A stretch of 64,000 nucleotides of DNA, taken from contig JAJRTE010000118.1 in the NCBI GenBank assembly GCA_024278455.1, positions 33,521 through 97,520 on the forward strand, read 5' to 3'. Under the pieces are notes generated by a model that had not been told where the DNA came from, made no database searches, and saw only the letters and a program-made list of their open reading frames with translations. The position numbers and the translations under genes were made by a program. Shown here piece by piece: positions 432-64,000 of the stretch. The DNA comes from Myxococcota bacterium. GTDB lineage: Bacteria; Myxococcota_A; UBA796; JAJRTE01. The first letter of the stretch is position 1; every line of letters begins with the position of its first letter.

Positions 432-3400
432 GTGGCGTTCAAGGAAAGTCTGGACGTTGTCCTCAGGGACTGCAAGTTCTTGTTGAGTGCGAGCCAACTG
501 GAGGTGCTTCTGCCGGGGGTGCGAAGCTACCTTCCGCCCCTGACCGCGATTCGTTTCGCCGACAAGGGTGCTCCACGATTCGTGTGGGGGTTCCCCGTAA
601 TCCACGGCCGGCGCTTGATCGAAGCGCTGTGCCAGTTCGTCGGACAGGAAGAGCAGAAGTACCTCGAGGACTCCAACTACCAGGAGAATCTCAGGCTCCT
701 GACACCGGCACAACTGAAAGAGGAGCCCTATTTCAAGGTCCTTTCACACCATCTCCTCGAGACGCTCGCCGAGGGTGCGTTTCTGAAGCTCGATAGCGTT
801 CTCTGGATCTACCTCGCCGACCTCGTCTGCCGGCGTCTCAACCAGGATGAAGTGCTGGCCGCCATCATCAAGCAGCTTCACCCCAACGAGCACGCCAAGC
901 TCAACGCGCTCGAGGCGGACATGAGCCGGCTTCGATACAGCAATCCGCAGGGCTTTGCCGATGTGCGCAACCGCGTGCTCAGGAGCCTGTTCGCGCGGAA
1001 CGACTTTGCCAACAGTTCGATGAAGGAGGTGTTCGACGAAGTACCGAGCAACCTCCTGAACCGCGAGATGATCGCCAACCGCCTGGTCTACACGGAGCGC
1101 CCGGAACCGATCTACCGTTCATTGGAAGTCGACGAGGCGTTCTTGATCAAGGGCTACAGGCTGCCCGCATCGACCTTCTCGGGCGTCAACCGTATCCTGC
1201 GCATGGTGATCGTGGGCATGCTGGAGCGCGCGCGGACCGGCAACATGCTGCCCCTGGATCTCTATTTCCTTACTTCGTTCGTCGATGGTCAGGTTCGGGA
1301 CAAGGCTCTTCGGCTTCCTTCGCAAGGCACGGGATTCCAGAAACAGAACGCCGCGAATCCTCGAGCACTGGAAGAAGCCGAGGAACGCGAGCGGATTGCC
1401 TATCTCTTGTCTCTCCAGGAGGAGCCCTCCCGCTACCTCCTCAACCACCTGCCGCTCCATGACCGGGAATACGTCAGGCCGATCGAGAAGGCGGTGAGCC
1501 GGCTCAGCCTCACGTCCCGCGATAGTGTCAAGAAGTTGAGAAACAAGACCGCTGCGGCAGAACTCGCATCCCAGTACGCGGAAGCTGTCAGAGACATTCT
1601 GCGATGGGACCTGTTCCAGGCACTCAAGTCGAGGTTGCGCTGGGTTTTTCCCAAAGATGGCACGTTCTACTGCGACAACCGCCCGCTGACCCCTTCCACG
1701 ATACCTCTCAACCTGGACAGCTTCTACGAGGTCTATGCCCGTTCGCGCCGTGGCACGGCCGTGTTCATCGATCTCGTGGGGTTCACCAACCGCACCAAGG
1801 CACTCACTCGAGAACTCCAGGAAGCGGCAACGCGAGGGGACAAGGAACGCTACACCCTCTCCTCGGTATCGCTGGCGATCCAGAGGGTGTTCTCCGTTCG
1901 AAACCACATCGAAGAGTTCGGCGGCATACCCCAGGGGTTCGAAGGCGACGCCATCCTCGACACCTTTCCTCGAGCCATCGATGCGCTGCGTTACGTGTCC
2001 GCTTTCGCAGACAACTACTCGAAAAACCGCTATATCCGATTCCGCCCCTTCGAACGGCCCATCGAGAATCCATACAAGGAAGGTTTCCGTGTCGGCCTCG
2101 CCAGCGGCGATTACTCACTGATTTCGATCGTCGGCCGCACGAACGACCTTCAGGGCGAAAAGTCCACCGACCGGGCCGTGGGCCACACGATCAATCGCGC
2201 GTCCCGGCTGAATTCCGGCAAGAAGGGCGAGAAGATCTTCCTCTCCAGTGACGATACCGAGCGCGAGGAGGAGGTGCCCGACCCGCTCAACCTGTTCAAG
2301 GTTCATGTGACGGACAACCAGGAACTCCACAACGACGGCATTGCAAGCTTCGAGGACACCTTCCTCGAGCTGAAGCGGCACGTTAAGTCGGAGTCCATGC
2401 CCTGGTACGAGCCTCGTTCCGGACGAGGAAGCACCATTGCCGGTGTGACGCCCAAGTTCAGAAACTACACGTTCGAGTTCATATTCGAAGACCCCAGGTT
2501 GAAACGGATCTGTCTCATCCGCAGGTTGCCTCGTTCGCCCGTCTTGAAGGGGCTCGAGGATGAAGTCGTGACGGTGTTCGAGTACCTGCTCTTCGAGATC
2601 GACGACTTCCTGGCGCTCGTAAAAAAAGATGCGGCGATTGCCCCGCGTCCTACCGCGCGCCCCGCTCCATCGCGGAGGGTTCACCCGCTGGAGCGTCGTT
2701 CGGAAGGCGCGGAACAGCCTGAGCTGGAGATGTCGGCCGAGGGGCTTCCACAATCCCCGTTCCAATGGGAAGACGCCGTTGCAGATCCCGCACAGTTTCT
2801 CGCCGCCAACCCCGGGTTGTCGCTCGACGACGTGCTGGGTGGTCCGGAGGCAGTCAGGGAAACGGTCGAAACGCAGATGCAAACGGCTGGCGGCGAAGGA
2901 GTCGCCGCGGCTCCGGGTGAGGGGATTGGAGGAAATCGTATTGACATCTCAGCCGTTTCGGTGACCTCCGGGTCGCTCGACGATGACCATCTCGACGATG
3001 GCGACGGAGCGCAGACCGCTTCGAGCTTGGAGCACGACTTCCGGCGCGGGCAGTTGTACCAGGAGGAGCACGGACTGGATGGCGACCGGGGGACGGCAGA
3101 GGAGGCTTCGAAAGGAGATGCCATTTCTCAGTCGTTCAGGGAGCGACTGCTGTCACAGGAGCCGTCTTCGGCATTCGGTGCGCTCTCGAGCACCGCGCCC
3201 ATCTCGGGCAGCCCTGTGGGGGGAGTTGCGTACCTCGGCACACAGGAGGAAGCAGGGAGCCTCTTCGAGGAGGCTCCGGGCGACGGGGGTGGGTCGGCGC
3301 CGGATTTCACCACCGGTCTGGCTCTTGGCGAGGGGGGTCAGGCACTGCATGCCGGCGGAAGCGCCCGCCTCGACGGGCACACGGACATCTCCACGCAGGA

Positions 3401-3824
3401 ACCGATCCGGCCTGGCGAGGGGCGGAACGTATTGGCGTCTCGAGCAGACACCGTGGGCGTGCCGTCGCAGGGAGCCCGCATCCCCGAGCCGGCCGCGAAT
3501 ACGATCAAGCCTGTACCGAAAGCGGTCGTCCTGGCCTGGCGGGGCCCCAGGGAGACCAGGCCCGCCGTGGATCCGCCGGACGCCGCGGGACGGAGACGCT
3601 TCCCACGGGGCGCGGGCGCGAGCGCGCAGGGAGTGGACCCACTGGAGTCTCGCGTGGGTGGCTACGTCTTCTCCGCCATCATGACGGGTGGGAAGACCAG
3701 GACGCGCCGTATCGTCATCGGGAAGACCGGTGACGGCAAGCTCGAGGATGTTCATATCTATCCGGCACCGGCCCACAAGATGGCCCCCTGGGTGCTCGAT
3801 CGACCGTTCACTGCGTTCCTTTAA
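432..3824 (+). CDS. Large multidomain protein with a class III adenylate/guanylate cyclase catalytic domain, an N-terminal domain of about 450 aa of unknown function, and a low-complexity C-terminal tail of about 400 aa
   Basis: 1130-aa ORF with a GTG start. Cyclase motifs are present: VFIDLVGFT (metal-binding Asp), GFEGDAILDTF, and VGHTINRASRLNS (Asn/Arg transition-state residues). The C-terminal 400 aa is rich in A/G/P/E/D (disordered). Confidence 0.65.
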   Translation: MAFKESLDVVLRDCKFLLSASQLEVLLPGVRSYLPPLTAIRFADKGAPRFVWGFPVIHGRRLIEALCQFVGQEEQKYLEDSNYQENLRLLTPAQLKEEPYFKVLSHHLLETLAEGAFLKLDSVLWIYLADLVCRRLNQDEVLAAIIKQLHPNEHAKLNALEADMSRLRYSNPQGFADVRNRVLRSLFARNDFANSSMKEVFDEVPSNLLNREMIANRLVYTERPEPIYRSLEVDEAFLIKGYRLPASTFSGVNRILRMVIVGMLERARTGNMLPLDLYFLTSFVDGQVRDKALRLPSQGTGFQKQNAANPRALEEAEERERIAYLLSLQEEPSRYLLNHLPLHDREYVRPIEKAVSRLSLTSRDSVKKLRNKTAAAELASQYAEAVRDILRWDLFQALKSRLRWVFPKDGTFYCDNRPLTPSTIPLNLDSFYEVYARSRRGTAVFIDLVGFTNRTKALTRELQEAATRGDKERYTLSSVSLAIQRVFSVRNHIEEFGGIPQGFEGDAILDTFPRAIDALRYVSAFADNYSKNRYIRFRPFERPIENPYKEGFRVGLASGDYSLISIVGRTNDLQGEKSTDRAVGHTINRASRLNSGKKGEKIFLSSDDTEREEEVPDPLNLFKVHVTDNQELHNDGIASFEDTFLELKRHVKSESMPWYEPRSGRGSTIAGVTPKFRNYTFEFIFEDPRLKRICLIRRLPRSPVLKGLEDEVVTVFEYLLFEIDDFLALVKKDAAIAPRPTARPAPSRRVHPLERRSEGAEQPELEMSAEGLPQSPFQWEDAVADPAQFLAANPGLSLDDVLGGPEAVRETVETQMQTAGGEGVAAAPGEGIGGNRIDISAVSVTSGSLDDDHLDDGDGAQTASSLEHDFRRGQLYQEEHGLDGDRGTAEEASKGDAISQSFRERLLSQEPSSAFGALSSTAPISGSPVGGVAYLGTQEEAGSLFEEAPGDGGGSAPDFTTGLALGEGGQALHAGGSARLDGHTDISTQEPIRPGEGRNVLASRADTVGVPSQGARIPEPAANTIKPVPKAVVLAWRGPRETRPAVDPPDAAGRRRFPRGAGASAQGVDPLESRVGGYVFSAIMTGGKTRTRRIVIGKTGDGKLEDVHIYPAPAHKMAPWVLDRPFTAFL

Positions 3825-4917: not shown

Positions 4918-4932
4918 AGAAAGGCTTGTCGT

Positions 4933-5454
4933 ATGCGTATCTATCGCGCACAGATTCCACGGATAGCGACGGACATCATCGCGACGCTCAGGAAAGACAA
5001 CGACATCGAGGTCTCGGACGCCAACGTCGGCGAAGCCGAACTGGACATCGCAGCCATCCTGGAGCAGTACCGCAAGACGGAACTCCGTATCACGGACAAG
5101 GCCAAGGACCTGCTCGAATCGCGAGGGCTCACGCACGCCGACTTGGGACGCGTGAGACGTGAACTGTGCGAGCGGTACCAACATCCAACCGGAGATGACG
5201 GGATCGCCTGGGTGATCGGGCAGATCGTCGAGTGTTTCATGCTCTCCCGGTTCGTCGACGAAGTCTACTCGGATGACAACGTGCTCCGAAAGAAGGTCAA
5301 AACCGTTCTCACGCGGCACCTCGTCGATGATGCGAAGCTGGACGCCGAGGTGAGATCCCGTATCAAGAACCTCCAGGAGGGGACCTCCGCATGGCACATC
5401 CAGTACCAGAAGGTCATGCAGGAGGTCCGGCGCAAGCACGGTCTCGTGCAATAG
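4933..5454 (+). CDS. Hypothetical protein, DUF507-like
   Basis: 173-aa ORF 13 nt after the OMP stop. Charged helical protein with the MRIYRAQIPRIATDIIATL N-terminus typical of DUF507. Family assignment is from memory only. Confidence 0.45.
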   Translation: MRIYRAQIPRIATDIIATLRKDNDIEVSDANVGEAELDIAAILEQYRKTELRITDKAKDLLESRGLTHADLGRVRRELCERYQHPTGDDGIAWVIGQIVECFMLSRFVDEVYSDDNVLRKKVKTVLTRHLVDDAKLDAEVRSRIKNLQEGTSAWHIQYQKVMQEVRRKHGLVQ

Positions 5455-27418: not shown

Positions 27419-29503
27419 TCAGGAATACAACATCGAGTAGATGTTTGCCACGACCCTGCGCATGTCTTTCCTGTGAACGATCATGTCCACCATGCCATGC
27501 TCCAACAGGTACTCCGCGCGCTGGAATCCCTCGGGCAACTTCTGGCGGATGGTCTGCTCGATGACCCTGGGCCCCGCGAACCCGATCAAGGCGCCCGGTT
27601 CCGCGATGTTGACATCGCCCAGCATGGAGAAGCTCGCAGCCACTCCTCCCGTGGTCGGGTGACACAGCAAGGAGACATACGGCAGGGCGGCTTCTTTGAG
27701 CCTTGCCAGGGCGGCGCAGGACTTTGCCATCTGCATGAGCGACAGGACGCCTTCCTGCATCCTGGCGCCGCCCGATGCGGCGATGAGGATGGCGCCGGTT
27801 CGGGCGGCCAGGGCGTTCTCGAACATGCGCGTGACCTTCTCGCCCACGACCGAACCCATCGAGCCGCCCAGGAAGGTGAAGTCGAAGACACCGACGTGAA
27901 CCGGGAGGTCGTCCAGGGTTGCGGACCCGTACACGAAGGCATCATGAACGCCCAGTTTCTTCTGGACGGCCGCCAGGCGTTCACGGTAGGTCTTCGAGTC
28001 CTTGAACTCGAGGGGATCGACGGGGACGATGTGGGCATCGATCTCCGTGAAGCTGCCTTCGTCCACCGTCATGTCTATGCGGCGTCGCACCGGAAGATAG
28101 TGATGGAAGCCACACTGGGTGCAGACGTTCAGATTGGCTTCGAAGTCCGGGCGGTAGATGATCTCTCGGCACTTCTTGCACTTGAACCAGATGGCCTCGA
28201 GGGGCCTGCTGGCCTGCGGGCGCGCGGTGTCCGAGGATTCCCCCAGCGCGTCGGTGGCCAGCACCCAACCGGGCACGATCCCCTGTTGCCCGTTGGCTGG
28301 TTGTGCTCCTGCATGACTCACGAGTTCCTCGAACACCCTGCTCCCCGGTGGAGCGTAGCTTTCCGGGACGAGTTTCTCCATGACGAGGTCATGCAGCACC
28401 GGCCGGAACTGCTTGATCTTCTCGTTCTCCCGTGACGGGTGCACGCGGTTGGTGAGTAGGATCAGGACGATTTCGCGTGCAACGTCTATCCAGATGGATG
28501 TCCCGGTGAAACCCAGGTGACCCACGCTCAGCCCGGTGAAGAGTCGTCCTGCGGCCGACCCTTCGCGTGCGGGCACGTCCCAGCCATAGGCGCGCATGGA
28601 GCCGTCCGGGAAGACGCGTCTGCGCCAGAACTCTTGCACCACGTCTGGTCCGAACAGGAGTCCTCGTTCGCCATGGTAGGCCTTGAGCATGGTCACGGCC
28701 AGGGCGTGGATCTCCTCGGCGGTGGAGAACAGCCCGGCATGTCCTGACACCCCCCCCATGACGTGGGCGTTGTCGTCGTGTACCTCTCCTGTCAAGTAGC
28801 GGTCCAGGCGCCTGTTGTATTCCGTGGTGGCGAAGGCTTCCCGGGGCAGGCCTCGTCGCGGCGGCTCCGCGCCCAGGGGCAGGAAGAAGGTGTGTGACAG
28901 GCCAAGGTGCCGGTAGATATGCTCTTCGCAATACGTGTCCAGCGGCATACCGGCTGTTCGCTCGATGGCTTCCGTGAGAAGAATGAAGCCGAGATCGCTG
29001 TAGATGGCGCTCGAGCCTCTTGGCTGAACCTGTGGCGAAGCCTTGACCTCCGCCATGATGGCTGCCCTGGCTTCCGGGGTTCCGGGCTCGAGGCTGCCGA
29101 GTCGGTGGTTCTCCACGATCTCCTGGTAGAATGGTCGCCAGGCGGCCAGTCCGGCCCCGTGGATCAACAGGTCGGAGATCAGGACGCGGTCCTTCCACCC
29201 GCCCGAGTATTCGGGAATGTGCCTGGACACGGGGTCCTCGAGGGACATTCTACCGGACTCGACAAGGGTCATGACGGCAGGCGTCGTTGCCAACACCTTG
29301 GTCAGCGATGCAAGGTCGAATACGGTGCCTCGAGTCATGTTGCGTTGACTGGGCAGTCGTTGAGCGGCACCGTAGGCCTTGAAGTGGCGCACCACGCCTC
29401 CGGCTGAAACCAGCATGACTGCCCCGGGAAACACCCCGTCGGCCAGGGCCTGTTCCAGGCAACCGTCCACGTTGGGAGACAGGACTTTTTCTCCGAAATC
29501 CAT
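27419..29503 (-). CDS. accD: Fusion protein. N-terminal beta-lactamase/transpeptidase-family serine hydrolase domain (about 420 aa) joined to the acetyl-CoA carboxylase carboxyltransferase beta subunit (AccD, about 285 aa)
   Basis: The N-terminus has the SxxK motif (ASLTK) and overall class-C/AmpH-like serine hydrolase similarity. The C-terminus has the AccD zinc ribbon CKKC...CTQCGFHH, followed by FTFLGGSMGSVVGEKV, ASGGARMQEG, and IGFAGPRVIEQTIRQKLPEGFQ. It is a single uninterrupted ORF. Confidence 0.75.
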   Translation of the reverse strand: MDFGEKVLSPNVDGCLEQALADGVFPGAVMLVSAGGVVRHFKAYGAAQRLPSQRNMTRGTVFDLASLTKVLATTPAVMTLVESGRMSLEDPVSRHIPEYSGGWKDRVLISDLLIHGAGLAAWRPFYQEIVENHRLGSLEPGTPEARAAIMAEVKASPQVQPRGSSAIYSDLGFILLTEAIERTAGMPLDTYCEEHIYRHLGLSHTFFLPLGAEPPRRGLPREAFATTEYNRRLDRYLTGEVHDDNAHVMGGVSGHAGLFSTAEEIHALAVTMLKAYHGERGLLFGPDVVQEFWRRRVFPDGSMRAYGWDVPAREGSAAGRLFTGLSVGHLGFTGTSIWIDVAREIVLILLTNRVHPSRENEKIKQFRPVLHDLVMEKLVPESYAPPGSRVFEELVSHAGAQPANGQQGIVPGWVLATDALGESSDTARPQASRPLEAIWFKCKKCREIIYRPDFEANLNVCTQCGFHHYLPVRRRIDMTVDEGSFTEIDAHIVPVDPLEFKDSKTYRERLAAVQKKLGVHDAFVYGSATLDDLPVHVGVFDFTFLGGSMGSVVGEKVTRMFENALAARTGAILIAASGGARMQEGVLSLMQMAKSCAALARLKEAALPYVSLLCHPTTGGVAASFSMLGDVNIAEPGALIGFAGPRVIEQTIRQKLPEGFQRAEYLLEHGMVDMIVHRKDMRRVVANIYSMLYS

Positions 29504-29535
29504 CGAGGACCCCCGTTCAATCGGAATCAATCGCG

Positions 29536-30456
29536 TCACGCCACGACCGGCTCCCGTATCTCAAGTGTGCCCTTGTTACCATCCAGGGTCGCAAGTGCCC
29601 CGATCGGCAGCGTGGCGTTGTTTTCTCCATGGCCGAAGGGAAGCCCGTGGACCACGGGTCCGGGAATGGCTTGCGCGAATTGCTCAAGAATGTCCACCAC
29701 CGGCCGCCCCGCAGCGCCAGGCTCAACGCAGTCGACCATTTCTCCGAAGGCGACCCCCGCCGCCTGTTGCAGTTTGCCGGCGAGCTGGAGTTGTGTCAAA
29801 AGACGATCGACCCGGTAGGGGCGTTCTCCGATGTCCTCGAGGAAAAGGATCTTGCCTCGAGTGTCCAGTTCGAACGGCGTGCCGAGTGTGGCGGCTATCA
29901 GGGAGAGGTTGCCGCCGCAGAGTCGTCCGGTGGCGCGCCCCTCCGACAGGCAGATCGACCCGCCCGTCCCGGCTGCCACAGGACCGGGAATCGTGTGCGG
30001 CCGGGTCAGCATGGCCATCATCTGCGCCAGGCTCGAGGCGCTGGTCTTGTGCAACCCGGCCACGAGGGGGCCATGGAACGTGACGAGCCGCGTCATCTCC
30101 GTGATATGGTTCAGGAGCGGCGTCAGATCGGAGTGGCCAAGGACCACCAGGGGATGCGTATCCACGGAAGGCAGTACCAGGTCCGGGAGTAGTTGCATGA
30201 CTCCGTATCCACCGCGGGCGAAGAAGACCGCCCTGATGTCCGGAGACGTGAACAACTCCTCGAGTTCGGCGATGCGTCGTTCCCGGGACCCGGCCAGGTA
30301 GTGTTCTCGATCGTGGATGTCGGCCCGATACCGAACCCGGAAGCCCTGAGTCTGGAGCCAGGCAACGCCCGCATCGAACGCAGCCCGGTCGAATGCGCTC
30401 GATGGAGCCGCGATGCCTATGACATCCCCTTTTTGCAAAGCTGGTGGAAGGACCAT
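29536..30456 (-). CDS. ldcA: LD-carboxypeptidase (peptidase S66, LdcA/MccF family)
   Basis: Motifs GDVIGIAAPSS, VFFARGGYG, VVLGHSDLTPLL, IFLEDIGERPYRVDR, HGLPFGHG. Its stop overlaps the start of the accD fusion gene. Confidence 0.8.
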   Translation of the reverse strand: MVLPPALQKGDVIGIAAPSSAFDRAAFDAGVAWLQTQGFRVRYRADIHDREHYLAGSRERRIAELEELFTSPDIRAVFFARGGYGVMQLLPDLVLPSVDTHPLVVLGHSDLTPLLNHITEMTRLVTFHGPLVAGLHKTSASSLAQMMAMLTRPHTIPGPVAAGTGGSICLSEGRATGRLCGGNLSLIAATLGTPFELDTRGKILFLEDIGERPYRVDRLLTQLQLAGKLQQAAGVAFGEMVDCVEPGAAGRPVVDILEQFAQAIPGPVVHGLPFGHGENNATLPIGALATLDGNKGTLEIREPVVA

Positions 30457-35042: not shown

Positions 35043-38000
35043 TCACTCCACCTGCACGGCAACCGGGATATACACGACCGGCTGGGTCGGGTCGTTCGTC
35101 TCTGCACGGATCTGGAATTGGTAGCCCCCGGCAGCGAGTCCTTCCGCCGACACGTCCAGGTCCAGGGTAGAGGCTTCCCCGCCCGCGATCACAGCCTCCG
35201 CTGCGCCCTCGAGGTCACGGAACGACACGAGACCGGCCGAGGGCAGCACCGAGGGGGCCAACTCGACGGCGGAGTATGTTCGTGGCACGGTTGGCGCCTC
35301 TCCGGGTCTGATAACGGCGACCTCGAGGCCTTCCCTGCCTTCACCGTCCTGGATGCCGACTCGAGCCCAGCTTTCGGGCGCACCAGGGATCTCCTCGTAG
35401 TAGAACCGGATCCTGCCATCGGGAAAGAGCACGATCTGGAAGGTGTATCGGAAATCACCGGCATAGTCGGGCACGTTCTGGAACTGGACATAGGCGACGG
35501 AACGGGACGAGTCATAGTAGAAGTAGGCGCGATCCGTGGAACCGAAGTCGAGGTCGGCCCAGAACGGAGCGATCAAGTTGGCCGGCGCATCCGAACTCGG
35601 AATCGGCAGTTCGCGATAGGCTTCTGTGGTATCTTCCGTGAGCGTGATGTAGCCATCGGTCGAGACGTAGAGCTGGTTGAACGAGCCCAGGTAGAACGGG
35701 AAGGGCTTGGTAAGAAGCAGTCCCGACGAATGGGCCTGATCCCCAGTCAGGTGGAGGGGCAGGACTTTCAGCTCTAGGTCATCCCACACGAACGGGATTT
35801 CGTACCAGGTGTATGACACGGTGGGTCTGAGGGAGTAGGCCAGTTGGCTTTCCTGCGGTCCTGCGTTGGTCAGCGCGATACGGACCGTGCCGGAATCTCC
35901 AGAGGAGATCTCGAGGGGAACTGGACTCACGTTCCATTGCAGCACCGGTGCCGGGCGTTCGGCCAGCTCGAGTTCCACGATGCCCACGGATCCCGTGGCG
36001 GCGGCTCCCTCCGCGGGAGCCTGGATGGGAATCATGACCGACACGTCGTAGAAGCCAACGGCGCTGGCTGTGAGCATGCCCGACGTGGCGCTGGCGTCGT
36101 CCAGCTCGAACAGGAAGTTGCCGGCGCTGTCCGTTCCGGTCTCGAGCACGTCGCTGGCGACTTCCAACGTGACGCGTGCAGCAGGGATAGGCGCGCTGTC
36201 TCCCTGGTCTGACGATACGACGCGCCCGCTAACCACGATGCGAGGCGTCCCTTCACCGTCGGTCAGGATGCCCGTGGCCAGGAAGGCTTCCAGCAGGCTG
36301 GAATAGAGCCGCTGCGCCTGGTCGGACGCCAGCCCGATCTCGGTGGCCGCGCCGAGCATGCTGACCGCGAATTCGGTGAAGCCGCTGGCCGGCGTCAACC
36401 GGTACTGCACAGTGTTGTACGCGCAACGGGCGAGCAACCGGGCGGCGGCCCAGGGGTCGTCGTCGATGGGTGTCACCGCGTACCCATGGAAGGTTTTCCC
36501 TGGAGGGGTTCCCGACACGGCCAGGTACATGGCCTTGTTGACGATGGCGGAGTCGTAGTGCAGTGGCGTGTAGCCGCCGTCGCTGCCGATGTACCCGCTC
36601 ATGTGTCCCGGCATGCCGAATATCTCCGGGTGGGCGAGGTTGCGGACCGGCGGCCTTCCAGGGATGTCTTCCCCGATGGACCAGTCCAACTCCCCGGTGG
36701 CGTAGGCCTCCACGAACGTGCCGAACAGGTCGGCCAACGCCTAGTTGAGGGCACCGGACTGCCCGGCATATTCGAGGTCCGGGCCATGGTCGATAACGCC
36801 GTGAGTGAGTTCATGCGCGATCACGTCCACGGCCACCGCGAGGGACGTGGCGCGCGACGTGCCGACGCAAAGCACCGCGTAGTCCGTGATCCAGGCCGCG
36901 TTGTAGCCAGACATATCCACCCGCACCACCACGTCCATGGGACTGTCGCTGTCGTCGATGCCTTTTCGGCCATGCTCCTCGAGGTAGTAGTCCAGCGCCA
37001 TGCGGACAGCGGCCAGCGCGCTGACACTCGCGCCATATTCTGGCTCGTCGAACCTGGTGCCGGGACCGTAGGTGATGTGGTCGTATTCGTCGAAGAACTG
37101 CCGGTCGTATGCCGAGAAGACGGAACCGTCGCTGTGGATGACATAGATCACCCCGGTCTCCTCCTCTGAAGAGGCATCCACGAAGAAGGTGTCGTCGCCG
37201 GCAGCATCTCCGTAGAGGTCCGGGTAGGCGTCGTCATCGTAGGGGTGGAGGTAGCCATCCACGAGATAGGGAAGGGGGAAGCCCTGTCCGCGGTACAGGT
37301 TCAGGGCATAGACCTGCCCGTCGTCGCCCGTGCCCGTGGCCGACACCTGGCAATCGGTATCGTTTTCGCTCGAACAGGTGGGCCAGGTGGAGGTGTCGAG
37401 ACGAACCAGGTCCTCTCGAGCCAGTACGCGGCCGTCGACCTTGCTCACCAGTGCCCGAACCGGGCGTGTCTCACCCGTTCGGGCATCCAGTGCCTCTGCC
37501 ACGAACTCCAGCGCGGCTTCCGCCGCCCCATGCGGCCCCACCCACAAGAAAGTCTGGCCTTCCGTTCCCAGGACGCGCAGCCCCTCCGCGCGGACGCGGT
37601 CGGCCATCTCGCGGGGCGACAGGACGCCCTGCTCGACTGTCCGGATGTTCGCCAGGCTGGCGTTGAGGGAGGTGACACGGCCGCCTCGAACATGAAGATT
37701 GAGTCGGGCGCCGCGTACCGGCAGCTCCCCACGGTATTGATGGAACTGCAGGTGCCTGGCACCGTGGGTGTCCGTGTCGTCTCGAGTCAGCCGCAAAGTG
37801 GAGAGTGGGTCCAGGGCCAGGAGGTGACCCAGCCGGGTGCGCACGCTCTGGCCCGGATCTCCGCGGCCCAGGTCGGGAAACGGGAGGTCGACCCCTGCCG
37901 CGGCCTTCACCCGGCCGTCGCGATCGTACACCGCCCAGACACGCCCGGCGCTGGAGATCGAACCTCCTGGTGCCTCAGGGCGCACGCCGGCAACAGCGCT

Positions 38001-38138
38001 CGGATCGCTCCTCGATTCGCGCTCGACAAGGGCCGTTCGCCGCTCCATCTCTCCCGGGGTGCCGGGGTCGCAGACGACCCCCAGAGACGCGACGACCATT
38101 CCGAGAACAATCCCGGCTGTTCTGCACCTTCTGTCCAT
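35043..38138 (-). pseudogene. Thermolysin-like M4 zinc metalloprotease (propeptide, catalytic domain and C-terminal extension) interrupted by an in-frame TAG at 36741-36743
   Basis: The upstream ORF ends ...[27 protein letters not shown]. The downstream ORF continues [13 protein letters not shown]... (compare thermolysin HELTH ... ESGAINEAISDIFGT). TAG replaces the Glu codon at the thermolysin E166 position (third zinc ligand). N-terminal signal peptide at MDRRCRTAGIVLGMVVASLGVVC. Confidence 0.75.
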
Positions 38139-46009: not shown

Positions 46010-46471
46010 CTATTGGGGTCCTCGAGACGATCGCAACTCCCGATAACGTGTCTCTTCATGGAGTTCCGAATGGTGCGAACGGTGTTGGAAGCTCAACAAC
46101 CAATGGGAACCGGTCAGCAGGAATTGCCCGGTTTCGTCGCGGTTGGCGTCGATCCGCTCCTTGATGTAAGGAAGGAGGTCCGGGGCGTACTGCACCTCGT
46201 CGAATATCACGGGCGGTGGGTACATCTCGACGAAGGTACGCGGATCTCGCTGTGCAGCCCCGCGGACATCGGGTGGCTCCAGGGAGACGTAGCGGTGGTG
46301 CGTTCCGAAGAGGTGCAGCAGGAGCGTGGTCTTGCTGGCCAGGCGGGGTCCGGTGAGCACCAGGGCCGGGAACTCGGCGGCCGCTTCCTTGAGGATGGGC
46401 TCCAACGATCGCTCGATGTCGGCTGGACGCACGGGCAGCCTCCTTGGTGGAGACGCGCATTTCGAATGCAC
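46010..46471 (-). pseudogene. N-terminal fragment of an AAA_14/DUF4143-family ATPase with a degenerate Walker A
   Basis: ALVLTGPRLASKTTLL (the GK Gly is replaced by Ser), IFDEVQYAPDL, FLLTGSH, then loss of similarity after about 120 aa. Homologous to the intact copy at 32089..33288. Confidence 0.5.
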
Positions 46472-47079
46472 GAAGTCAGGTGCTGGAGGCGATTCACCGC
46501 AGGTTGAGCCGGTTGGCCACGGAAGAACGGCGTCTTCGCACGGCTTGGCGGTTGGCGACCGGCCTGGGATCCTCCCATCCGACGGAAAACGGGTTCACCT
46601 TCGACTGGAACGTCGGCGTGCCGTTTCTCCCAGGATCGTCCCTCAAAGGGCTCGCACTCGCCCATGCGCGCCTGATCGGGATGACCGAGGACCGTGTCAC
46701 GGCCCTGTTCGGGCTCCAGCGGGACGAGGACCGGGTGCGCGAGGACTGGAGCGCGTCGGGAGACCTGGTCTTCCTGCCCGCCTACCCCAGCCGGTGGCCG
46801 GACATCGAGGTGGATGTGGTCAACTGCCACCACCCGGAGTACCATGGAGATCGCCCGGGCAGCCGTCCGGCACGTCCGGCTGTGGACTACGAGAATCCCA
46901 ACCCTGTCTTCTTTCTCACCGTGGCTTCGGACCAGGACTTCATCTTCCGGCTGTTCAGCCGGACCGGAGACCTGCGGGCGGTCGAGCGCGGGTTCCAACT
47001 CCTCGAGGAGGGCCTGGGCACGCTTGGCGTCGGGGCAAAGACTGCCGTGGGGTATGGGTTGCTGGCGCCGGTCTCGTGA
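46444..47079 (+). CDS. RAMP-superfamily protein (Cas7 group, Cmr6/Csm3-like), solitary
   Basis: Cmr6-type N-terminal motif (TGLGSSHPTENGFTFDWNVGVPFLPGSSLKGLALAHARL) and a C-terminal glycine-rich loop (LGTLGVGAKTAVGYGLL). 211 aa with a TTG or GTG start. There is no other cas gene in the window. Confidence 0.65.
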   Translation: MVETRISNARSQVLEAIHRRLSRLATEERRLRTAWRLATGLGSSHPTENGFTFDWNVGVPFLPGSSLKGLALAHARLIGMTEDRVTALFGLQRDEDRVREDWSASGDLVFLPAYPSRWPDIEVDVVNCHHPEYHGDRPGSRPARPAVDYENPNPVFFLTVASDQDFIFRLFSRTGDLRAVERGFQLLEEGLGTLGVGAKTAVGYGLLAPVS

Positions 47080-51382: not shown

Positions 51383-52795
51383 CTACCCGAACGCCAGCAT
51401 GGCTCGAGCGCCTCGCAAATGCACCTTCCACTCCGTCCAGGTCCTCATGCCCATGGCACGCCGGAACAGGTAGCGCGGCCTGAGGTAGAAGGCGCGATAG
51501 GAACGGTCCAGGAACGCCTGGTATTCCTCGGCGCTCAGACCCTCCGGGACGTACACCAGGGCGTTGTGATCCAACGTGGAACTCTGTTCGAAATCGAACT
51601 GGTATCCTCGAGCCGACAGCTCTTCGTAGAACGTCGTGCCCGGGAAAGGCACGAACTTGTTGAAATGGGCGAAGTCCAGGTCGAGTTCCCGGGCGAACGC
51701 CAGGGTCCGTTCCAGGGTCTCCCGGGTTTCGGCGGGTGAGCCAACCAGGAAGTCCGCGCGCACCCGCAGCCCGGCTTGCCTCGCCCATTGCACCGCGCGC
51801 CGGTTCTGCGCCGCCGTGTTACCCTTGTTCAATGTCTTCAGGATGGCGTCGTCCCCGGACTCGAGCCCGAAGAGCACCTGCCAGCAGCCGGCGTCCTTCA
51901 TCATCGAAAGCATGTCGAGGTCCACGGCGTTGACTCGAGTCAGGCAGGTCCAGGGAAGCCGGGGGCGGAAACGGCGCAATTCGCGACACAACCGCTCGAG
52001 ACGGCGGCGGTTGAGGGTGAAGGTATCGTCGAAGAAACGGATTTCCCGCGCGCCGTACTTGCCGGCCAGGAGTTCGATCTCCCCCATGACGTTCTCGACG
52101 GAGCGCTCCCGGTAGCGCTCTCCGAACACGGCCCGGTCGCAGAAGTTGCACCGGGAGGGACAGCCTCGAGATGTCATGACGTGGGCGAGGGGGAGTCGGC
52201 GCAGGGATGCCGGGCAGGGCTCGTAGGCTTCCAGCGGGGGCAGGAGGTGGCGGGCCGGGTAGGGAATCGTGTCCAGGTCTTTCACGAACGGCGCGGGCCC
52301 GGTCCAGCAGGGCTTGCCGCCGGCCTCGAATACCAGCCCGGGAATCGACTCCGGCTGCGGTCCCCCGCCCTCGAGATGCGCAAGCAAGGCGGAAAAGGTC
52401 GTCTCGCCCTCCCCCAGGACCAGGAAGTCGAACCGGCCGGATTCGATGGTCTCTTCGGGCATGGCGGTGGGGTGGGACCCGCCGGCCACGAACGCCGCGC
52501 CGGGAATGATGCGCCGGAGGATGTCCGCGGTCCTGACAGCGTTGCTGAAGGAAGGCGTGGTGACGCTGACGCCGACCACGTCAGGCCGAAAGCTGCGTCC
52601 TTCCACCGAGATAGCTTCCCACGGAAGGCCTCGAGCACAGTCCAGGATGTGGACATCGTGGCCGTCCCGCTCGGCCACGGCAGCCAGGTAGGCCAGGCCC
52701 AACGACGGAATGATGTTCTCCACCCCGGAGAAGAGCTGGCGCTGCCCGCCGATGTCGGTGGCGCCAAAGGGCACGTCCACCAGCAGCACTTTCAT
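51383..52795 (-). CDS. B12-binding-domain radical SAM protein (class B cobalamin-dependent radical SAM)
   Basis: N-terminal cobalamin-binding Rossmann-like domain (KVLLVDVP ... GLAYLAAV ... PDVVGVSVTT), then CPSRCNFC and the downstream radical SAM core. Confidence 0.85.
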   Translation of the reverse strand: MKVLLVDVPFGATDIGGQRQLFSGVENIIPSLGLAYLAAVAERDGHDVHILDCARGLPWEAISVEGRSFRPDVVGVSVTTPSFSNAVRTADILRRIIPGAAFVAGGSHPTAMPEETIESGRFDFLVLGEGETTFSALLAHLEGGGPQPESIPGLVFEAGGKPCWTGPAPFVKDLDTIPYPARHLLPPLEAYEPCPASLRRLPLAHVMTSRGCPSRCNFCDRAVFGERYRERSVENVMGEIELLAGKYGAREIRFFDDTFTLNRRRLERLCRELRRFRPRLPWTCLTRVNAVDLDMLSMMKDAGCWQVLFGLESGDDAILKTLNKGNTAAQNRRAVQWARQAGLRVRADFLVGSPAETRETLERTLAFARELDLDFAHFNKFVPFPGTTFYEELSARGYQFDFEQSSTLDHNALVYVPEGLSAEEYQAFLDRSYRAFYLRPRYLFRRAMGMRTWTEWKVHLRGARAMLAFG

Positions 52796-52999
52796 CGCTC
52801 GACCTCGTTTCCACACCGCACCCGCAACCGCTCGTGCCGGTCCCGGGGGACCCGGCTCGACCGCATACCGCCCTGCACATTCCGGGATTGTGTCCAGTAT
52901 GAGAAGACCCGGCGGTCTCCCTGGGTGCGCCTGCGTTCCGGGTGAAAGGACCTCGTCGCGGGGCTGACGCCGCCGGGACGGGGTCCTGTCGGCTCCCTG

Positions 53000-53563
53000 C
53001 TACAAGATACGGCCTCCCACGGCCTCCATCAGCCCCGCGTGGGGGGCGGGAATGACCTCGATGTTGGTGACCATGCCCGGTTCGGCGGCCTCCTCGAGGT
53101 ACCTGGCGGCCTCCTCGACCTCGTACAAGGGGCCGGTGATGAGGAAAAAGGCCTTCCCACCGAGCCCCTGGGCCAGGCGCAGATCGAGGAGCCGTACCGC
53201 GTTGTGCTTCAGCGCCTGGTCTGCCAGAACGACCGCGGCGGACACCGAGAAGGTCTCGACAATGACCACCGAATCGATCTCCTGGTCCTGGTTGCCACCG
53301 GTCATGGCGGGGAAAACCTCCTCGCTGATGTTCGGGATGAACAGGCTGTCGACTACCGCCTCGCCGCCGTAGTGCAATCCCTCTTCCATCGCCTCCTGGA
53401 CCTCGCGCTCGCCACCCGCCACGAGAACCATGTACTTGCCCGGGCACAGGCTGTGAGACTCGAGCACGGTGATCCGGGCCTTCTTGAGCATGACATCATG
53501 AACGAGGATGCCTCGAGCAACGCTGTTGGTCTCCACGAGGCCGAGTGCTGGGTATTTCATCAT
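53000..53563 (-). CDS. Tandem-BMC-domain microcompartment shell protein, PduT-like (possible Fe-S pore ligand in CPGK)
   Basis: Two BMC domains (ALGLVETNSVARGI ... ; VVIVETFSVSAAV ...). The LCPGKYMVLVAGG motif corresponds to the Fe-S-ligating Cys of PduT. 187 aa. Confidence 0.8.
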   Translation of the reverse strand: MMKYPALGLVETNSVARGILVHDVMLKKARITVLESHSLCPGKYMVLVAGGEREVQEAMEEGLHYGGEAVVDSLFIPNISEEVFPAMTGGNQDQEIDSVVIVETFSVSAAVVLADQALKHNAVRLLDLRLAQGLGGKAFFLITGPLYEVEEAARYLEEAAEPGMVTNIEVIPAPHAGLMEAVGGRIL

Positions 53564-54879
53564 CCACCCATAATGACGATACGGTCGCTCGAGACCTCCA
53601 CCACCTGTCCGGAGATGGACGCGTGGTGGTTGGCTCCGAGCTTGCCGGCTGGAATGCGCGCGATCAACTGCCCCTTGGAAACGTGATCGCCTCTCCGGAC
53701 CACCGGCTCCGAAGGCGCCCCGCTCTGCTGCGTCAGGGAGATGGCGACTCGAGGCGGGTCCTCCATCCGGGTCAGGGGCAGGTCATGGTCCTCGTAGGGC
53801 TTCAACTGGTACCGGCGCGTGATCCTGTCCTTGCCGATCTTGCGATACTTGTTGAACTCGTGGAGCTGCCTGGGGGCATGGTGGTGCGGATTCTTGACCC
53901 CGGCCGCCCGCAACCGCTCGAGGATCTCGGCGTAGGCCCGCCTGGGACTGAGATACATCGGGCAGGCAAACTCGCACAGCCCGCACTGGGAGCACAGGAA
54001 CGCCGCGGTCATCACCGACGTGGGCTGCTCCAGTTTGTATGCCAGCGTTCGCATCACCCTGTGGGGCTCGATATGGTGCCCCTGCATGTACCTCGAGCAG
54101 GCGTCAGTGCAGTAGCGGCACTGGCAGCAGGCGGCCACGCTCCGCCGGATCATCGCTTCCATGGTGATCTGCTTCTGCTGGACCACCGGGTGATCTCTCG
54201 GCAGGAACAGGATTCCGCTCGTCGTCTTGTTGACGGAAGCACCGGTGCCGACAATCCGGCCCATCATCGGTCCGCCGTCGATGATGGCGATGTCCTCCAC
54301 CGGGATCCTGGGCTGACAGCGCAGCAGAAGATCCAGCACCGGCGTGCCGATGGGCGCGATGATGACTTGCGGGTGTTCGATTTCCCCTGCCAGGGTCACG
54401 ATCCGGTCGGTCACCACACGACCGCGAGCAGCTCGAGCCACCTGGACCATGGTCAACACGTTGCTGACGACCGCGCCGACCTGGAGTGGAATGCCGCCCT
54501 CCGGGACGATTCGTCCGGTGAGGTCCGCGAGGAGTATGTGCTCGTCGCCGGCCGGGTAGGTGTTGCCCATCAGGCCAAGCTGGACGTTGCCGCGTCCGTT
54601 CAACTGCTCCGTCAGGGCCTCCACCGCTCCGTGGTAGTGTTTCTTGACCCCGATCAGGCCTCGAGACGCGCTGGTGTGGGACATGATCAGCAGCAGGCCC
54701 TCGAGGATTTCGTCGGCGTAGTGCTCCATGACCCGCTGGTCCGACGCGAGCAGGGGCTCGCATTCGGCCCCGTTGGCCAGGACCAGGTCCACCTTGGCAT
54801 CGATCTTCACGTGGGTAGGGAATCCCGCTCCGCCGCAACCGATGATGCCGGCGTCACGAACGATATCGACAAGAGACAT
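53560..54879 (-). CDS. PduS-like cobalamin reductase / RnfC-family flavin and Fe-S oxidoreductase
   Basis: GIIGCGGAGFPTHVKI (NADH/FMN-binding motif of PduS/RnfC). Two 4Fe-4S ferredoxin motifs (CCQCRYCTDAC, CSQCGLCEFACP). Its stop overlaps the PduT-like start. Confidence 0.8.
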   Translation of the reverse strand: MSLVDIVRDAGIIGCGGAGFPTHVKIDAKVDLVLANGAECEPLLASDQRVMEHYADEILEGLLLIMSHTSASRGLIGVKKHYHGAVEALTEQLNGRGNVQLGLMGNTYPAGDEHILLADLTGRIVPEGGIPLQVGAVVSNVLTMVQVARAARGRVVTDRIVTLAGEIEHPQVIIAPIGTPVLDLLLRCQPRIPVEDIAIIDGGPMMGRIVGTGASVNKTTSGILFLPRDHPVVQQKQITMEAMIRRSVAACCQCRYCTDACSRYMQGHHIEPHRVMRTLAYKLEQPTSVMTAAFLCSQCGLCEFACPMYLSPRRAYAEILERLRAAGVKNPHHHAPRQLHEFNKYRKIGKDRITRRYQLKPYEDHDLPLTRMEDPPRVAISLTQQSGAPSEPVVRRGDHVSKGQLIARIPAGKLGANHHASISGQVVEVSSDRIVIMGG

Positions 54880-62429: not shown

Positions 62430-64000
62430 CTACTCGCCAGCTCGCACAACCTGCACGCGTGCCCCGGGGGACCCTCCGGCGACGGCGCTGTCGTACATCA
62501 TCTCGGCCATGGCGGGCGGCTGGTTGAAGCGTCCGGGCACGATGGCTCGGGCACGGAAACGAAAGTCGTAGGTCCCCTTGGGCAGAGTGTCGTAGTAGTA
62601 GGCGACCCGGTCGTCCAGCATGGCCACGTGGGTCGGGGCCAGGGTCGGCGGGCGGCTGGGAGTGGCCTCGGGCGGAGCAGTGGCCAGGGCCGGGTTGAGC
62701 GGATCGAGCCCGGCCGCCAGGGGCACCGTGATGGCTACTTGGTGGCGATCGGCGGGATTGACCACCTGCAAATGGTCCTCGATCACGTCCCCGGTGGCGA
62801 GTTCGAGGGTGATGCCCGGTTCGGAGATGGCATGCTTCACCGGGGGAGCGTCTCCAGGCTGCACGACGAGGAGTTCCCGCGTGACGACGAATCCCCGGGA
62901 GAATGGCTCGGCCAGTCCCACGTCTTCCCCGGGCAGCCAACTTTCGGCCAACCGGAGCACGATTTCCCCCTGGTCCGGGCCGGCGGCGAGACGGACGCGC
63001 CCAGGGCCTCGAGCCGTCGTGACCATCGTCGCGGCAGGCTGCTCCCCGGACACCTCGAGCACCCTGTTGTCATCTCCGGCGCGGATGTCGATCCTGGCCT
63101 CCGGGCCGGGTGGCAAGGGAGGCTGCAGCCGCTGAGCGAGGGCGGCCATGGCCGCTGCGTTGGCGTTGGTCGTGCCCCATCCTCCGTCCTTCCCGAGGGT
63201 GACCAGGGCGTCGATCAGGGGCGGAAGCCGCGGCTCGTCCGGCTGGTACCTCTCGATTGCGCGGATCGTCAGCGCCAGCGTGCGGGCCTCGGAAGGGAGC
63301 ACCAGCGCGCTGCGCTTCTCGATGCTGTCCTGCAAGCCGCCGTAGACCGGTTTCCCTTCCCGTTGTTCGATGACCACCCCGTGCCACAGGTCGTCCGCCA
63401 GGGCCTGGGCCACAATCTCCTCGCCCCTTCCGCCCAGCGAGAACGCCAGGGCGACTCGAGCCTTGCCCTCCTGGTCGAGGTAGGCGGCTCTCCGCGCGAG
63501 TTCCGCGGCATAGCCCGGGTCGAAGTCGCCGGCTTGGGCCAGGGCGAGCAAGGCCATGGTCCGTTCCCCGTCCCGCTCGCCGTCGATGAGCCCTGCGGCG
63601 TCGGAGCGGAGCGCTCGACGCAATGCCCGCTTCAGGGTGTGGCGCAGGTCGCTATCGATCGTGTATCCCCGGTCGCTTGCGGCCTGGAGGAACTCGAGGG
63701 TCCAGGCGGTGAGGGACACGTAGCCGCGAGCGCCCGGCCAGTAGGCGACCAGGCCCCGGCCGTCCACTGCCCGGGGGAGCGCTTCGAGCGTTTCCTTCAC
63801 CGCGGCGTCCAGTTCGCTGGCCCGCTCCTCGAGGTGGAGGAGTTCCCGGAAGGCTCTTGTGCTCAGGATCGCCCGGGCCCGGCTGAGCTTCTGCTCGGTG
63901 CAGCCGTAAGGGTACTCGAGGAGGAAGTCCAGGCCATCCGCCAGGTCGACGAGGACCGGTTGGTTGGTCACGAAGAAGGCCCGCTTCACGCTCCCAGGGC
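62430..64000 (-). CDS. Alpha-2-macroglobulin family protein, C-terminal portion (the gene continues beyond the window end)
   Basis: Thioester motif YPYGCTEQ, followed by alpha-2-macroglobulin thioester-domain and receptor-binding-domain-like sequence. The frame is open to position 64000. Confidence 0.8.
   Translation of the reverse strand, partial: PGSVKRAFFVTNQPVLVDLADGLDFLLEYPYGCTEQKLSRARAILSTRAFRELLHLEERASELDAAVKETLEALPRAVDGRGLVAYWPGARGYVSLTAWTLEFLQAASDRGYTIDSDLRHTLKRALRRALRSDAAGLIDGERDGERTMALLALAQAGDFDPGYAAELARRAAYLDQEGKARVALAFSLGGRGEEIVAQALADDLWHGVVIEQREGKPVYGGLQDSIEKRSALVLPSEARTLALTIRAIERYQPDEPRLPPLIDALVTLGKDGGWGTTNANAAAMAALAQRLQPPLPPGPEARIDIRAGDDNRVLEVSGEQPAATMVTTARGPGRVRLAAGPDQGEIVLRLAESWLPGEDVGLAEPFSRGFVVTRELLVVQPGDAPPVKHAISEPGITLELATGDVIEDHLQVVNPADRHQVAITVPLAAGLDPLNPALATAPPEATPSRPPTLAPTHVAMLDDRVAYYYDTLPKGTYDFRFRARAIVPGRFNQPPAMAEMMYDSAVAGGSPGARVQVVRAGE

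Follow-up and report, generated by a model that had tools for sequence, protein, structure and literature searches.

Thermolysin and the Bacillus neutral protease are PDB relatives of the gene described here (E ~3e-29 when the catalytic region was searched by phmmer against PDB sequences). In thermolysin, the zinc ligands come from the arrangement H142ExxH-19 aa-E166, and the His ligands are hydrogen-bonded by Asn165 and Asp170 (PMC3268031). In this work, a single gene of this family (M4, thermolysin family) was found on the minus strand at 38138..35043, with an in-frame TAG on the codon of the third zinc ligand. It comprises 1031 codons including the internal TAG and lies in a 64-kb window, by which we mean the whole stretch of DNA that was analysed, part of the chromosome of a Gram-negative bacterium whose best named RodA relative belongs to a 'Myxococcota bacterium' MAG (60% identity). 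A sequence-only reading had taken two adjacent minus-strand ORFs for one M4 gene, and the coordinates it gave for the gene and for the TAG were exact. The whole architecture is common to only two other proteins found, both uninterrupted. The closer one is P0001 (1030 aa, about 59-60% identity over 94% of the query), from contig CAYQMG010000067.1 of the MAG GCA_964418585.1, named 'uncultured Gammaproteobacteria bacterium'. The other is L003, an ORF on the JGI contig Ga0163147_10039776 with 45% identity. The features of the disrupted gene are as follows.

35043..38138, minus strand: whole disrupted M4 metalloprotease gene, from ATG 38138 to TGA 35043, aligned over its full length to P0001
38328..38357, minus strand: sigma-70-like promoter match TTGACA-18-TACACT, a consensus match alone, ~190 nt upstream of the ATG
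38070..38138, minus strand: signal peptide ending in Cys23, which is invariant in the alignment with P0001
37656..37799, minus strand: FTP (fungalysin/thermolysin propeptide) motif, PF07504, 35.3 bits against a cut-off of 21
36792..37055, minus strand: Peptidase_M4 catalytic N-domain, PF01447, E 5.9e-17, profile positions 56-144 of 145
36801..36815, minus strand: HELTH zinc-binding motif with the His142, Glu143 and His146 equivalents, from the sequence and the thermolysin alignment
36741..36743, minus strand: in-frame TAG on the Glu166-equivalent codon (third zinc ligand), GAG in the relatives
36735..36737, minus strand: TTG, the first possible start of the downstream ORF, two codons past the TAG
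36309..36740, minus strand: Peptidase_M4_C alpha-helical domain, PF02868, E 9.7e-15, including D470 and H527
36558..36560, minus strand: H527, the His231 equivalent by thermolysin alignment, inside Peptidase_M4_C
36036..36233, minus strand: CarboxypepD_reg-like beta-sandwich domain, PF13620, 28.4 bits, under the Pfam cut-off of 32.3
35499..35678, minus strand: NIDO (nidogen-like) domain of the C-terminal extension, PF06119, 36.5 bits against a cut-off of 25

The open frame upstream is 465 codons long, from ATG 38138 to the TAG at 36743..36741, and this start is backed by the N-terminal alignment to P0001. The downstream frame holds 565 open codons after the TAG and ends at the TGA at 35045..35043; the chance of 565 codons without a stop is ~1e-7 at the base composition of the window. 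Pfam places FTP and Peptidase_M4 upstream of the TAG, and Peptidase_M4_C, the CarboxypepD_reg-like domain and NIDO downstream of it. The Peptidase_M4 match (62.9 bits, cut-off 22.4) stops at profile position 144 of 145, and the Peptidase_M4_C match (55.3 bits, cut-off 24.4) begins at position 15 of 165, with the first residue past the TAG, at which the two ORFs abut. The Pfam domains thus run on across the TAG, so that the two ORFs are the halves of one gene, as had been proposed, and the full-length alignment to P0001 agrees with this. At the N-terminus, Cys23 comes after a hydrophobic stretch at a position common to P0001 and the disrupted gene; the residues that lead to it are the non-canonical GVVC here, versus the canonical lipobox LVGC in P0001. 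The N-terminus of the M4 gene is probably a lipoprotein signal. At the other end, the CarboxypepD_reg family is also precomputed for P0001, in which the NIDO region (35499..35678) is well conserved. The NIDO domain is familiar chiefly from animal extracellular-matrix proteins.

The public protein collection lists a separate 564-aa product (P0066) that starts from TTG 36737, a codon that is preceded by no good Shine-Dalgarno sequence. A split enzyme made by a restart at this TTG was considered and rejected, because the C-terminal piece would have no signal peptide and a restart would not bring back the zinc-ligand Glu. The two ORFs should be annotated as one disrupted M4 gene and not as two proteins.

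The residue that the stop replaces can be named from the alignment. The stretch from HELTH to the TAG aligns without gaps with thermolysin (1kei_A), which puts the TAG at +20 from the second His, at Glu166. The equivalents of Asn165 (N465), Asp170 (D470), Tyr157 (Y457) and His231 (H527) are all kept in this alignment, and D470 and H527 lie downstream of the TAG. In the M4 homologues retrieved by database search, the Glu is present within a GA[LIM]NE motif in 60 of 60 sequences, at +20 in 59 and at +21 in the remaining one, which carries a one-residue insertion. The assignment of the stop to the third zinc ligand in the sequence-only reading is therefore borne out. As encoded, the third-ligand Glu of the M4 motif GAxNExxSD is absent, with the surrounding motif kept as GALN-*-ALAD; a 40-mer that spans the site, with the codon itself left free, is GGTGCCCTCAACNNNGCGTTGGCCGACCTGTTCGG. 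The disrupted gene would accordingly count as M4 by descent and, as encoded, not as a functional M4 peptidase. That a random nonsense mutation should strike this very codon is improbable a priori, which counts against an ordinary null allele. There are 289 one-step nonsense paths in the gene, distributed over 228 codons, and only one of them falls at this Glu and four at catalytic residues. The strike is thus a 0.3-1.4% coincidence, a figure that is post hoc since any in-frame stop would have been flagged, and we read no mechanism into it.

The ancestral codon was sought in the relatives. The codon context is AGC GAG GCG in L001, the locus of P0001, and AAT GAG GCG in L003, compared with AAC TAG GCG in the disrupted gene. 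Since GAG is found in both close relatives, one G-to-T transversion is enough to produce the TAG, which is the change that had been suggested, and the proposed comparison of orthologues gave two intact genes (P0001 and L003), each with GAG at this site. A CAG intermediate is conceivable, with a C-to-T change at CCAGG leaving the stop in CTAGG, but it was rejected as less parsimonious because the Glu codon of the relatives is GAG. Scans of genome contigs returned only the 59% relative and scans of metagenome contigs one 45% relative, with no independent assembly of the same species among them, so the TAG rests on a single consensus base. The word-indexed protein search was non-exhaustive: the fused query retrieved P0001 without P0066, and the downstream-ORF query retrieved P0066 without P0001. 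For this reason, the fact that no closer relative was found is weak evidence.

Apart from the stop, the gene shows no sign of decay, with a GC3 of 0.76 before the TAG and 0.80 after it. In a relative-rate test on a three-way alignment with L003 as the outgroup, 66 unique amino-acid changes were counted in the lineage of the disrupted gene versus 80 in P0001, and downstream of the TAG the numbers were 39 and 38, respectively. By this test, there is no excess of lineage-specific substitutions in the disrupted gene. The absence of decay elsewhere in the gene means that the TAG event would be very recent on an evolutionary scale, and an old pseudogene is excluded by it. The same absence fits equally a very recent mutation, an assembly with a wrong base at this site, or continued expression of the gene.

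Stop use was compared across the window. Among its 36 genes, 24 end in TGA, 10 in TAG and two in TAA. Several genes that end in TAG have complete C-terminal domains, among them those for PBP2, a DUF4143 ATPase, a radical SAM protein, a BMC protein, a GYD protein and an alpha-2-macroglobulin with the MG10 domain. This agrees with the earlier statement that TAG is a genuine stop elsewhere in the window and that codon reassignment is unlikely. The last of these (62430..63989, minus strand) is the C-terminal part of a bacterial alpha-2-macroglobulin, a protease inhibitor, located ~25 kb from the M4 gene; nothing points to a functional link between the two.

A six-frame scan of the 64-kb window for stops with coding-like GC3 on both sides left the TAG at 36743..36741 as the only in-frame stop inside a coding sequence. 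The other candidates were antisense frames or neighbouring genes that share a frame. The candidate between two Hsp20 genes separates adjacent genes and interrupts none, and that upstream of 4918..5454 stands between an unknown ORF and a separate ORF with a complete DUF507 domain. The candidate between a BMC shell gene and a B12-binding radical SAM gene marks neighbours, not an interruption. These two belong to a group of three genes at 51383..54879 (minus strand), which encode a PduS-like flavoprotein (Complex1_51K, 4Fe-4S, RnfC_N), a tandem BMC-domain shell protein and the B12-binding radical SAM enzyme, and which may be a fragment of a microcompartment locus. AccD and FolC are likewise adjoining genes with no interruption between them. 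Directly upstream of FolC, the 706-codon ORF at 27419..29539 (minus strand) contains a complete Beta-lactamase domain (PF00144, residues 25-373) in frame with AccD (Zn_ribbon_ACC at 451-476, Carboxyl_trans at 484-664), and the linker between the two parts is 75 residues long, with neither a stop nor an ATG. Either the two parts are truly fused, or accD starts internally at a non-ATG codon and is overlapped by an upstream gene that reads on.

The TAG at 426-428, the one ambiguous candidate, was found to be a true gene boundary. In a full HMMER search against 1.8 billion representatives, the homologues of the upstream fragment reach their C-termini there, and those of the downstream ORF align from residues 2-6 onwards. 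The downstream gene (432..3824, plus strand) is translationally coupled to the small upstream gene (TAG, 3 nt, GTG) with a likely ribosome-binding site AAGGTGGA. Its 1130-aa protein has about 20 public homologues of similar length and no Pfam or NCBIfam match, and within it a 'VFIDLVGFTNRT' stretch is similar to the motif with which class III nucleotidyl cyclases bind metal. Elsewhere in the window, an ORF at 46393..47079 (plus strand) matches the CRISPR-associated RAMP superfamily (PF03787, 42.7 bits) and is surrounded by genes for a glycosyltransferase, a radical SAM/SPASM protein and a DegT aminotransferase.

We hypothesize that the TAG is a real and ordinary null allele of the M4 protease gene, of very recent origin (a one-step pseudogene), and we consider this the probable explanation. 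The intact gene would encode a membrane-anchored or secreted M4 zinc metalloprotease of ~1030 aa, built from a signal peptide that ends in the conserved Cys, an FTP propeptide, a two-lobed M4 unit, and C-terminal beta-sandwich and NIDO-like domains. One G-to-T transversion would have turned the GAG of the third ligand into TAG. With standard decoding, translation would then end after residue 465, leaving the signal, the propeptide and the HExxH lobe. The truncated product would be without the third zinc ligand, the alpha-helical lobe with the equivalents of Asp170 and His231, and all of the C-terminal domains. Without the third ligand and the helical lobe, it could not be expected to act as a protease, and we infer the loss of protease activity from the role of Glu166 together with the loss of the whole C-terminal domain. 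The TAG would in this case be present in the organism and not merely in the assembly.

The sequence-only reading had left three options: a mutation, a sequencing error, and readthrough. The comparisons above make readthrough or recoding unlikely, while mutation and error are inseparable from sequence without reads. If the T (plus-strand A at 36743) were a miscall or a minority variant introduced by the metagenome assembler, the organism would have GAG and an intact M4 protease. The sequence is a single 121-kb contig, most likely from a metagenome-assembled genome, and the gene is otherwise perfect with no relaxed constraint, as would be seen if it were intact. G-to-T (C-to-A) changes are, moreover, a typical oxidative-damage artefact of short-read libraries. 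However, there are no other signs of a poor consensus in the 64 kb, with 0 frameshifts and 0 other in-frame stops in about 36 genes. Complete domain coverage was found for RodA, PBP2, MreC, SurA-like, HolB, PSP1, TatD, LptD, AccD, FolC and LD-carboxypeptidase, and the complete domain matches in about 35 other genes indicate a good consensus sequence, in which a single miscall could still occur. Consensus substitution errors per base are also far rarer than real nonsense alleles per gene. On this basis, an artefact is an unlikely explanation, though one to be taken seriously. The preference for mutation over error comes from general knowledge of error and pseudogene rates and from the clean state of the other genes.

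If the TAG were decoded at a useful frequency, through near-cognate readthrough or with a suppressor tRNA whose gene lies elsewhere in the genome, some full-length protein would be made, and the TAG would act as a leaky or conditional switch on a secreted protease. The 565 intact downstream codons with no detectable relaxation would be compatible with it. Against this, the TAG is not conserved, as both relatives have GAG and all 60 homologues have Glu; no tRNA genes were found in the 64-kb window; and the RNA fold of about 140 nt around and after the TAG is no better than that of shuffled sequence (z = -0.5). Since TAG ends 10 of the 36 genes, a strong suppressor would lengthen many proteins. 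The residue that near-cognate readthrough usually places at UAG is Gln, Tyr or Lys, so that no carboxylate zinc ligand would be restored. We therefore regard such decoding as very unlikely, and much the same holds for a real TAG that is suppressed in part in vivo, whether through an amber suppressor tRNA on the chromosome or through readthrough that depends on conditions. If partial suppression were true, a costly cell-surface protease would be throttled at translation termination, at the very residue that gives it activity. The insertion of pyrrolysine, or the reassignment of TAG to a sense codon, is exceedingly improbable. A TAG at an active site superficially recalls pyrrolysine in the methylamine methyltransferases, and pyl genes occur in some deltaproteobacteria-like lineages. 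Nevertheless, the window contains a single in-frame TAG; TAG is a frequent genuine stop there, and the one at 426-428 truly separates two genes. Among the annotated genes of the 64-kb window, no pylS/B/C/D-like domains or tRNA were found, the orthologues encode Glu, and the side chain of pyrrolysine has no carboxylate for zinc binding. Codon reassignment, pyrrolysine and programmed readthrough are thus all unsupported, and the recent null allele remains the preferred reading.

If the TAG is real, this uncultured, Myxococcota-like lineage would carry a natural and clean null allele of a large protease that is secreted or exposed at the surface. Costly extracellular enzymes are commonly lost in natural populations, and such an allele would fit this pattern. 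Beyond annotation, the TAG in the M4 gene matters little.

Compared with P0001, the disrupted gene is alike in length, domain order and the N-terminal Cys, and it differs in the stop, P0001 being intact with GAG (Glu) at the TAG site. The gene neighbourhoods are also different: P0001 is found beside a suf operon and an amidase gene, whereas the disrupted gene is located beside a GYD-domain gene and a TPR gene. The protease subfamily, with three members found, is rare in public data; it is uncharacterised and elaborates on an enzyme family that is well known. With thermolysin and the Bacillus neutral proteases (MEROPS M4; PDB 1kei, 1npc), the gene shares HExxH, the 19-residue spacer and the FTP propeptide. 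On the other hand, its Glu166 codon is a stop, its protein is about three times longer, and it has a ~150-residue insert ahead of the catalytic domain, a probable lipoprotein signal, and a ~400-residue C-terminal extension with the CarboxypepD_reg-like and NIDO-like domains. By comparing it with ordinary one-step bacterial pseudogenes, the case is the same in kind, with a stop made by a single substitution in an otherwise intact gene that has intact orthologues, and the sole curiosity is that the substitution struck a catalytic metal ligand.
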